DNA from: a virus
Taxonomy: Duplodnaviria > Heunggongvirae > Uroviricota > Caudoviricetes
DNA: 64,000 nt
Strand: one strand, 5' to 3'
Virus record (IMG/VR): IMGVR_UViG_2531839666_000014
Made by a program: the position numbers. This document shows, one piece after another, positions 51,001 through 54,000 of this stretch. Each line of letters begins with the position of its first letter. The stretch's first letter is position 1.

Positions 51001-54000
51001 CGGAGGCAATGATCTACTCAGTTATCAGCAAAGCGTATAACCGAAAAACAAAGGAGAGATGGAAGTTGCAGGTGGAGGCTGCATTAAGAAAAGGGAAAGA
51101 ACCACCAGCCTATATACCTAAATCGGTGAGCACGCAAACAAAAGCAACACACCTGGCAATGATCAAGGCTATTCTGCGCGCCGCAGAGCGAGACTGGAAA
51201 TGGCTTGAAAAAGCACCTGTAATCAAAATACCTGCCGTAAAAAACAAACGCGTGAGATGGCTGGAAAAAGAAGAAGCCAGGAGACTCATTGATGCATGTT
51301 CTGATCCCCTGAAATCTGTAGTTAAATTTGCACTGGCAACTGGCCTGAGGAGATCAAACATTATTAATCTGGAGTGGCAACAAATCGATATGCAGCGACG
51401 TGTTGCCTGGGTAAACCCTGAAGACAGTAAGTCAAACCGCGCTATTGGGGTCGCACTGAATGACACTGCCTGCAAGGTGTTGCGTGATCAAATAGGCAAA
51501 CATCACCGCTGGGTGTTTGTTTATACCACTGCTGCCAGAAGGCCTGACGGGACAATGACACCAAGCATCAGAAAGATGCGCCTGGACTATAACACATCGT
51601 GGTTAACAGCATGTCGTCGGGCAGGAATTGAAAATTTCCGTTTTCATGACCTCCGCCATACCTGGGCCAGTTGGTTAATTCAGTCAGGTGTACCGCTGTC
51701 AGTACTTCAGGAAATGGGCGGCTGGGAGTCTATCGAAATGGTGCGTAGGTACGCACACCTTGCACCTAATCATTTGACAGAGCACGCGAGGAAAATTGAC
51801 GACATATTGGGTGACGATGTCCCAAATTTGTCCCACCCTGAGGTTTTTGAGGATGCAAAGAAAGCATAAGCAATTGAATTAGAATGAGTTAAGCTCACGC
51901 TTTCAAGTGGTGAGCAACAACTTTAAAGATCTTGGCCCGGAAGTCAGTTTCCGCCGTATTTATGAATACGCTGGCGGCGACTGGCAGGAAGATAATGGCG
52001 TCTGGCACCAGAACGTGTTCGCTTATTATCTCTCCATCTCCTGTAACCATTGCGATGACCCCGCATGTACAAAAGTCTGCCCCAGCGGCGCAATGCATAA
52101 GCGTGAAGATGGCTTTGTGGTGGTTGATGAAGATGTTTGTATCGGCTGCCGCTACTGCCACATGGCTTGTCCGTACGGCGCACCACAGTACAATTATAGC
52201 GCGGCGATTTTTTTGATACCGATTTGCATTTCATTTGATACCGCTGAAAAACGCCGATACGCAACTTATTTGATACTAAATCGGCGCTTTTCTTTTGAGT
52301 TTTAGAATGAGTTTTTAAGCGCTCATTCACTCTCTTTCAAACCAGTTTTAACTGTTTGTGGTTTTGGGTAAGGCTGGACTTTGAATAGCTTTGTGTTGAG
52401 GCGTTTTCTGGCCCTCTTGTTCAGAAACCGGATGTAACGAAACTGTCGGAACTTATGCACACTGGCTCTGTCGATATTAGCCCTCAGATGTTCACCTCGT
52501 TGTCCGCCTCGTTTAATGGCACTCCTGCAAATCTCGTGATACCACTCGCCATCAAGTTCATAGAATGTTGATTCATGGCTGCCTACATAATCAAAATTGC
52601 TTGCCTGATACACGACACCAAGACAGCCACAACGCTCATCTGCAAACGACTGAACCCAACTGTACCTGCGGATAAAGCTGCCTGATTAGCTTGAGCGCGT
52701 AACTGATTGCCCTTGATTCGGAGTTTCTCGGCATACAGTCATGCATCCATAGCCGGTTAAGCTCCATATATTCTCGGTTCTGCGTACCCGTTACGACGCG
52801 TGCACCACTGTTTGGGTTAAGGGCGTAACCCCATTGCATTACGCCAACAAGTTCCCGTTCTGAAAATATACCCAGATGAAGGTAGGAATTATTTACGAAA
52901 CGGTGGCTGTAATGTTTATTGACGATAACCAGTCTGGCCAGCCAGCAACTTATTGTCTCAACCCGCAACTCACGGGAGCCATAACCAACGATATTGTCGT
53001 TATAGCGAATAAGTTCAGGCGTGCTGATGATACGGGATGTGACTTGCTTTCTGTTCCCCACGACAGGATTTCCTTGTGTATGTGGGGTGCTCTGTGGCGC
53101 TCGGAGATGTGATTTGATTGAGGGTTTTACAGCGCGGACATTTTACTTCCAGATAACTGAAACTGGCCCGTGCCAGTAGCTTATTGCAGTGTCGGCACCG
53201 TATGTTTCGATACATGGCCGCATAACCTCCTGCTTTGTTGTTGATGCCTTTCTCATGCAATCGATCGACAAAAACGATCGATTCGATTTGTTTAATTGAT
53301 ACAACAAATAGATTTAAAAGTCATCAACAATGATTCAGGGCGGTGATTATTTACTTAAAGAAACGAAGAGTTAGGTGGTGAAAACGATCATAAAATGATC
53401 ATTTTATTGACTTTTTATACAGTGAAGGTAGGATCGCGCGTATATGTAGTATAGTTTCAAATCAACAGGATACTACATAAAAGGGAAACCCAGCATAGCT
53501 GGAACTATGCTGGGTCAATCTGTAAAAACTTGCATCAATGCTTTACTTCGAGCTCGTGGCGTATCCTATGATATTCCCCGGTCTCCTGTAAAGCAGAGAT
53601 GCATAAAAAGGAGATCTTTATCATGGATAAAGAGCCTGTTTGCCCTGCCTGTAAGACTCCCTTACAGCTCATCTATCGCCGTTCTCGATCTCAAAATGGC
53701 AAGACATACAAACCAAAAAATGCTTCCTGTTTCAGGATGCTGATATGTCCGGCCTGTTCTCCCCGGAGGGAAAATACACAAAACGTGCATTACAAATTCA
53801 CCCGGCAGGGAAACCTGCCGGTCGGTATTGTTACATCATAGTACCGTCAGTTCCGGGTTGAACCGGCTCTGGTTGCTCTACGGGTTGAGGCTCATTTTCC
53901 GTGCTGTTTTCAGCCGGAGAACGACCAACCATTCGGGCCAGCACTTCATCAACATATGCGTCGATTTGTGCCTCAAAATCCTTGCGAACCTGCGCCTTCA

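Follow-up and report, generated by a model that had tools for sequence, protein, structure and literature searches.

How does a scrap of a bacterial gene come to lie in the middle of DNA that is catalogued as viral? The question is raised by a 64,000-nucleotide stretch of the IMG/VR record IMGVR_UViG_2531839666_000014, assigned to the Caudoviricetes (the whole stretch is referred to below as the window, and positions are counted from its first letter), in which a piece of the Escherichia coli gene ynfG is sandwiched between a lambdoid prophage encoding Shiga toxin (Stx) and a Mu-like prophage. The window comprises the last 64 kb of a 98,565-bp contig, and the end of that contig, at window position 64000, falls within the Mu-like prophage. 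The source is E. coli O128:H2 strain 9.0111; an open reading frame (ORF) that spans the ynfG piece (the chimeric ORF in Table 1) is an exact match to EII22744.1, annotated as '4Fe-4S binding domain protein [Escherichia coli 9.0111]'. This strain is an STEC (an E. coli that produces Shiga toxin) of serotype O128:H2 that has been draft-sequenced (AEZZ; PMC3359367). Our analysis indicates that ynfG was very probably disrupted by two independent prophage insertions, 273 bp apart.

The host fragment occupies window positions 51922-52194 on the plus strand and corresponds to nucleotides (nt) 79-351 of ynfG, which encode residues 27-117 of YnfG. Over its 273 bp it is 100% identical, with zero mismatches, to intact copies of the gene, including that of strain A8 (618 bp; L002, 2423-3040); its translation reads FKDLG...APQYN and contains Fer4 domains according to Pfam. 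A megablast search with window positions 51870-52195 found a ynfG match in 5,322 of 5,426 complete E. coli genomes, and nearly all of these matches span query positions 53-325, which are window positions 51922-52194. An earlier reading made from the sequence alone (the sequence-only reading) had placed a ynfG fragment of ~275 bp between two prophages and described the gene as disrupted on both sides within 300 bp. Both statements stand: the fragment aligns perfectly to nt 79-351 of the uninterrupted gene, and both of its boundaries are true mobile-element ends. The start that it gave, ~50 bp past the stop codon of the phage integrase gene (int), is also right, as that codon ends at 51869 and the fragment begins 52 bp beyond it. 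The finer measurements needed adjustment. The residues given, 27-125, are eight too many, and the fragment ends one nucleotide later than the 52193 proposed, although abruptly and at the Mu-like terminus, as described.

On its left the fragment borders a lambdoid Stx1c prophage of the POCJ13, 75/02 and phiSTEC1589 type, located at its normal site; this boundary is the prophage's right attachment site (attR). The junction between int and ynfG is base-for-base equal in 05-3629, in which the remainder of ynfG, ynfH, dmsD and clcB follow directly. It is also found in JNEC-KY174 and in draft contigs L003-L006, followed by an unbroken 3' part of ynfG, ynfH and dmsD. The left attachment site (attL), in which ynfG nt 1-85 are followed by phage DNA beside ynfF, is present in 05-3629 and JNEC-KY174, and in each of the 21 IMG/VR contigs containing the beginning of ynfG the attL junction falls at nt 85 of the gene. 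Comparing attB, attL and attR yields the 7-bp core TTTAAAG, and the POCJ13 and 75/02 phage records align up to, and stop at, window position ~51920. These observations agree with published work, in which ynfG is an integration site of Stx1 phages (PMC5447701, PMC10562709, bioRxiv 10.1101/2024.05.07.593058), including the Shigella phages POCJ13 and 75/02 (PMC5447701), and is reported as the Stx1-prophage site in E. coli RM10410 and CIDM-EC20-1974.

Known Stx1 phages that integrate in ynfG (POCJ13, 75/02, RM10410 Stx1a and phiSTEC1589-Stx1c) likewise encode a tyrosine integrase beside the att site and have their attR at ynfG nt 79; the arm past the int stop codon is identical in these phages, and their int-exo region is 93.7-99.9% identical to the window. 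The closest resemblance is to phiSTEC1589-Stx1c, one end of which is 99.9% identical to window positions 44000-51869. The stx1 genes lie in the lambdoid late region (Pfam RIP, E = 6e-38; SLT_beta, E = 4.8e-48), and by nucleotide identity the toxin subtype is classed as Stx1c: the stx region is 99.9% identical to phiSTEC1589-Stx1c, as against only ~96% to Stx1a phages. The phages POCJ13 and 75/02 of Shigella, in contrast, carry Stx1a, and int in the window differs by a 1-nt frameshift in the present assembly. The site-specific integration of an Stx1 phage into ynfG proposed in the sequence-only reading is thus borne out by an attR equal to those of known members, with the toxin refined to Stx1c. 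phiSTEC1589-Stx1c itself comes from an O112 strain, and the Stx1c subtype agrees with the O128:H2 background of that strain 9.0111 has.

On the right, the fragment meets an Sp18-type Mu-like prophage exactly at that element's right terminus, which reads TATAGCGCGG...; the join falls between positions 52194 and 52195, and each of the 25 listed hits places the Mu-like terminus at precisely 52195. Complete E. coli genomes that contain at least 80% of the 11.8-kb Mu-like stretch number 187, and the copies have different neighbours from one genome to the next, among them ybbA, cah, pspG, a phage terminase gene and an alcohol dehydrogenase gene. Sp18-type prophages have been reported to occupy strain-specific sites (PMC2669165, PMC7430833). 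A Mu-like element had been named as the second disruptor of ynfG, and the junction does fall at a terminus that is found at many unrelated loci.

The two ends of the element are those of a transposing phage of this family. In window orientation it begins TATAGCGCGGCGATTTTTTTGATACC and finishes GGTATCAAATGATTCACCTGGTTACA (left end ...CACCTGGTTACA); the left end, taken from relatives, and the right end form an imperfect inverted repeat of 26 nt when aligned in register, and three TTTGATAC-type motifs, presumably transposase-binding sites, are present at each end. Full-length relatives are ~38.8 kb long, with genes for a MuA-like transposase and an AAA ATPase beside the far (left) end. Those in which the transposase and ATPase are annotated are 99.6-99.8% identical over the shared 11.8 kb, and the element's own left part lies beyond the contig end. 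Within 52195-64000, PHROG matches identify tail-fibre and Mu-type baseplate genes. Sp18 of O157:H7 Sakai and its STEC relatives, at ~38.8 kb, have the same right-end mom and com genes, Gin-like invertase and tail-fibre genes and Mu-type baseplate; the Sp18-type relatives also have the MuA-like transposase, the AAA ATPase and strain-specific insertion sites. What sets the present element apart from Sp18 is its insertion site, between ynfG nt 351 and 352, which is new and occurs in 0 of the 5,426 complete genomes, and its mom, frameshifted in the present assembly. With phage Mu it shares random insertion by transposition, the right-end order mom-com-gin-tail fibre-baseplate and a left end of the 5'-TG...CA-3' type; it differs from Mu in a duplication of 4 bp rather than 5 bp and in a right end in TA-3' rather than CA-3'.

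With both flanks identified, it is highly improbable that the ynfG fragment is cargo of a single composite prophage with no host junction at this place. The IMG/VR provirus call, in which the full 98.5 kb count as a single viral contig, would fit such a composite, and the sequence-only reading had named it as the finding that would overturn its own interpretation. However, each flank is a complete and independently documented element end, both elements occur separately in many genomes (~0.5 Mb apart in JNEC-KY174), and the fragment is 100% identical to chromosomal ynfG; independent occurrence and perfect identity contradict the composite.

A second concern is that the junction between ynfG and the Mu-like end might be a mis-join of the draft assembly, the two prophages not being truly adjacent. 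The assembly is a draft with indels in A runs, the contig breaks inside the Mu-like prophage, and the junction is present in this one assembly only. Yet the break falls on the exact Mu-like terminus, in unique ynfG sequence, with no repeat common to both sides, and a mis-join that by chance hit the terminal base of the element is itself very unlikely. We regard an assembly artefact as very unlikely indeed.

Bacteriophage Mu makes a 5-bp target duplication, and a duplication of that length had been proposed here in the sequence-only reading. The Sp18-type family does not follow Mu in this respect: at four independent Mu-like sites the duplications are of 4 bp (GTTT, ATCA, TCCA and TGCT). At ybbA, the rebuilt empty site with a single TGCT matches intact ybbA at 122 of 122 positions (2,734 records at an identity of at least 99%). 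In addition, GenBank LC727881.1 annotates a 4-bp 'duplication due to insertion of Mu' (35673-35676 and 75645-75648), with the element starting TATAGCG. Other junction coordinates used were L031 496-526 and 39267-39297, and those of L042/L043. A 5-bp duplication was also rejected on the element's terminal base, as all copies have T at 52195, while the target has G at this position in ynfG and in ybbA but C at the terminase site. The Sp18-type Mu-like family makes a 4-bp target duplication and has a right end in TA, and our literature search found no statement of a 4-bp duplication in this family. The duplication length of the family predicts that CAAT, the last four bases of the fragment, recurs at the other Mu-like end.

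The same four sites bear on whether the junction still reflects the original insertion. A later rearrangement, by recombination between copies or by Mu-mediated adjacent deletion or inversion, could have separated the Mu-like right end from the distal part of ynfG, in which case the other end of the prophage would not be flanked by ynfG. Some genomes do hold several Mu-like copies, at up to seven places per genome, and the other Mu-like end lies beyond the contig end, look-ups of ORFs across the predicted junction being negative and uninformative. Against this, both Mu-like ends carry a matching 4-bp duplication at four other independent sites, so that simple insertion is the rule, and the window shows no sign of rearrangement within it. 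On balance, a rearrangement of this kind is quite improbable.

The sequence-only reading had further drawn attention to a 12-bp direct repeat on either side of the fragment, which it suspected to be coincidental. The repeat exists, as TTAGAATGAGTT occurs exactly twice in the window (51879-51890 and 52302-52313), although the positions given, 51886-51897 and 52303-52314, were off by 7 and 1 nt. The first copy is in the phage arm and is also present in POCJ13 and 05-3629, with no Mu-like element nearby; the second is internal to the Mu-like end (Table 1). In a window of such size, chance alone should give about 1.8 exact repeats of at least 12 nt within 500 nt. Since each copy belongs natively to the element that contains it, the repeat, judged by its sequence context, is coincidental as suspected; it was rejected as a junction or duplication feature.

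Two independent insertions remain the preferred explanation, and the locus would have been formed in two steps. In the first, a lambdoid Stx1c phage would have integrated by site-specific recombination, catalyzed by its tyrosine integrase, at an attB in ynfG (core TTTAAAG, nt 79-85), leaving int and attR abutting ynfG from nt 79 onward. In the second, an Sp18-type Mu-like phage would have entered ynfG between nt 351 and 352 by DDE transposition, its right (mom) end pointing towards the Stx1c prophage. The intervening piece would then be inert host DNA. The rest of ynfG (GCTGAAAAAGG, GCTGAAAAAGGGCACATG; nt 352 onward), preceded by a second CAAT and followed by ynfH and dmsD, is predicted at the Mu-like left end, ~38.8 kb further right. 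Both mechanisms are already well documented, Mu-type transposition being known at random sites that include the inside or vicinity of Stx prophages, and the finding is in this sense ordinary.

Several points weigh against this explanation. The other Mu-like end is unread, as the contig stops at 64000, so that the distal part of ynfG and the duplication's other copy are predictions. To the left of the window, 8.6 kb of the source contig (25988-34565) contain no ynfG, so that the prophage's own attL is unseen there; it is expected ~3.3 kb further left, in the form of ynfG nt 1-85 followed directly by TTGGTTACG, beside ynfF. The order of the two insertions is unprovable from sequence. Finally, the source is a draft with two indels in A runs, in int and mom, and its sequence quality is imperfect.

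These two single-base indels were recognized by comparison with near-identical intact copies. The split of int is due to the loss of one A from an A5 run at ~50907-50911, the gene being intact at 1164 bp in 05-3629, phiSTEC1589 and JNEC-KY174, and that of mom to one extra A near 52658, relatives holding an intact 738-bp gene. They represent either true pseudogenes or draft sequencing errors. A similar amino-terminal int fragment of 92 amino acids (aa), P0018, is present on 19 NCBI contigs, which suggests that the int frameshift may be real; the 141-aa frameshifted Mom fragment was found on no contig other than the source contig.

The combination of ynfG with a Mu-like end is rare. The ynfG-Mu junction is present in 0 of the 5,426 complete E. 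coli genomes, and a scan of IMG/VR, in a collection without the source contig, gave 0 matches. A close relative is JNEC-KY174, with an identity of 99.9% along 1,567 bp of the left arm of the Stx prophage and of 99.8% for the Mu-like right end. In JNEC-KY174 the Stx prophage lies in ynfG with an unbroken 3' remnant, and the Mu-like copy is at its distant site. Because the remnant is unbroken there, the Mu-like insertion in ynfG is specific to the strain or lineage, and it is most simply taken as the later of the two events. None of the ynfG and ynfH loci in IMG/VR (eight and three, respectively) has a Mu-like left end. Ten predicted ORFs across the junction of the Mu-like left end with ynfG, under 4- and 5-bp models, were all absent from the protein collection; this result is uninformative, since under the 4-bp model the sole plus-strand ORF is the common 83-aa carboxy terminus of YnfG. 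An exact look-up of the chimeric junction ORF in the contig index likewise gave no match, its sole record being the nr entry EII22744.1; this ORF is an annotation by-product and not a functional gene.

Mu-like phages of this family have been joined to Stx prophages elsewhere. The records Stx2c_JNE082796 (LC727881.1) and Stx1_JNE122137 (LC727895.1) each contain a same-family Mu-like phage (85% identity) joined to an Stx prophage. In these records the Mu-like phage lies inside the Stx prophage, whereas in the window it lies 273 bp outside it, in the host remnant. The two records, both of prophages with a Mu-like insert, were the sole matches to the Mu-like region in the phage collection, in which isolated phage genomes gave no megablast-level match.

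Table 1. Features on either side of the ynfG fragment, in window coordinates
Feature	Position	Strand	Remarks
Lambdoid Stx1c prophage, right-hand 51.9 kb	1-51921	-	Most late genes minus; early/recombination genes and int plus; continues left of window
stx1c operon	29548-30784	-	stx1A 29828-30784, stx1B 29548-29817
Tyrosine integrase gene (int), 1163 bp	50707-51869	+	Pfam Phage_integrase, E = 1.4e-45; split into 92-aa and 286-aa ORFs
Phage-side arm of attR, 52 bp	51870-51921	+	Identical in 05-3629 and at end of POCJ13 phage record
Chimeric 132-aa ORF	51907-52305	+	Start in phage arm, YnfG 27-117, then 37 codons of Mu-like end
att core TTTAAAG	51922-51928	+	ynfG nt 79-85; sole stretch common to attB, attL and attR
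CAAT, predicted copy of 4-bp target duplication	52191-52194		Second copy unseen, beyond contig end
Sp18-type Mu-like prophage, right-hand 11.8 kb	52195-64000	-	Runs off contig end
Right terminus with three direct TTTGATAC motifs	52195-52280	+	Motifs at 52212-52219, 52234-52241 and 52269-52276
12-mer TTAGAATGAGTT, copy 2	52302-52313	+	107 nt inside Mu-like end; same offset in six insertions elsewhere
mom gene	52323-53061	-	Pfam Mom on both halves; split into 141-aa and 96-aa ORFs
com-like translational regulator ORF	53015-53260	-	phrog_6417, phrog_13819; Com family annotation in relatives
SASA/DUF6645 esterase	54318-56405	-	Mu-like prophage gene
Gin-like invertase	56496-57050		PHROG match to DNA invertase

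Each of the two prophages holds its own SASA + DUF6645 gene. In the lambdoid prophage this gene, which encodes a NanS-p-like sialate O-acetylesterase, lies downstream of stx1c (26858-28876, minus strand); in the Mu-like prophage the NanS-p-like gene is placed between gin and com, an unusual cargo position for a Mu-type phage. At the left edge of the window, a 2,794-aa ORF with LPD5, LPD1, MuF_C and LPD38 domains starts at position 1353 on the minus strand and runs off the edge (source contig 27534-35918; L036 11336-19720), and past it a YgiW/BOF gene and a hok/gef gene are found near the left arm of the prophage. Two of the Mu-like relatives carry a RefSeq 'tRNA-OTHER' annotation in the head-gene region (L031 21481-21560; L033 21482-21561), which in the present copy falls past the contig end.

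The proximity of the two elements raises the question of whether the Mu-like right end and the attR of the Stx1c prophage, 273 bp apart, interact physically; such an interaction is predicted as possible, at a low probability. In Mu-type headful packaging, which begins from the left end, the packaged DNA extends 0.5-3 kb past the right end. If the same held here, virions from the Mu-like copy would be predicted to contain, besides the ynfG fragment, the Stx1c prophage's attR, int and xis. The Stx1c prophage, in turn, could no longer restore ynfG by excising, since the Mu-like insert would remain, and a reversible disruption would have been made permanent. Read-through into ynfH-dmsD could also come from the repressor gene, which faces outward at the Mu-like left end.

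The importance of the locus beyond annotation is slight. The 98.5-kb 'viral contig' consists of two unrelated prophages and a scrap of a host gene, and the deposited entry EII22744.1 is an artefact of the junction. A host junction can be concealed by tandem prophage calls, and the target duplication to seek in the Mu-like family is one of 4 bp. For the O128:H2 strain itself, the finding means that the ynfEFGH-dmsD operon is broken twice.

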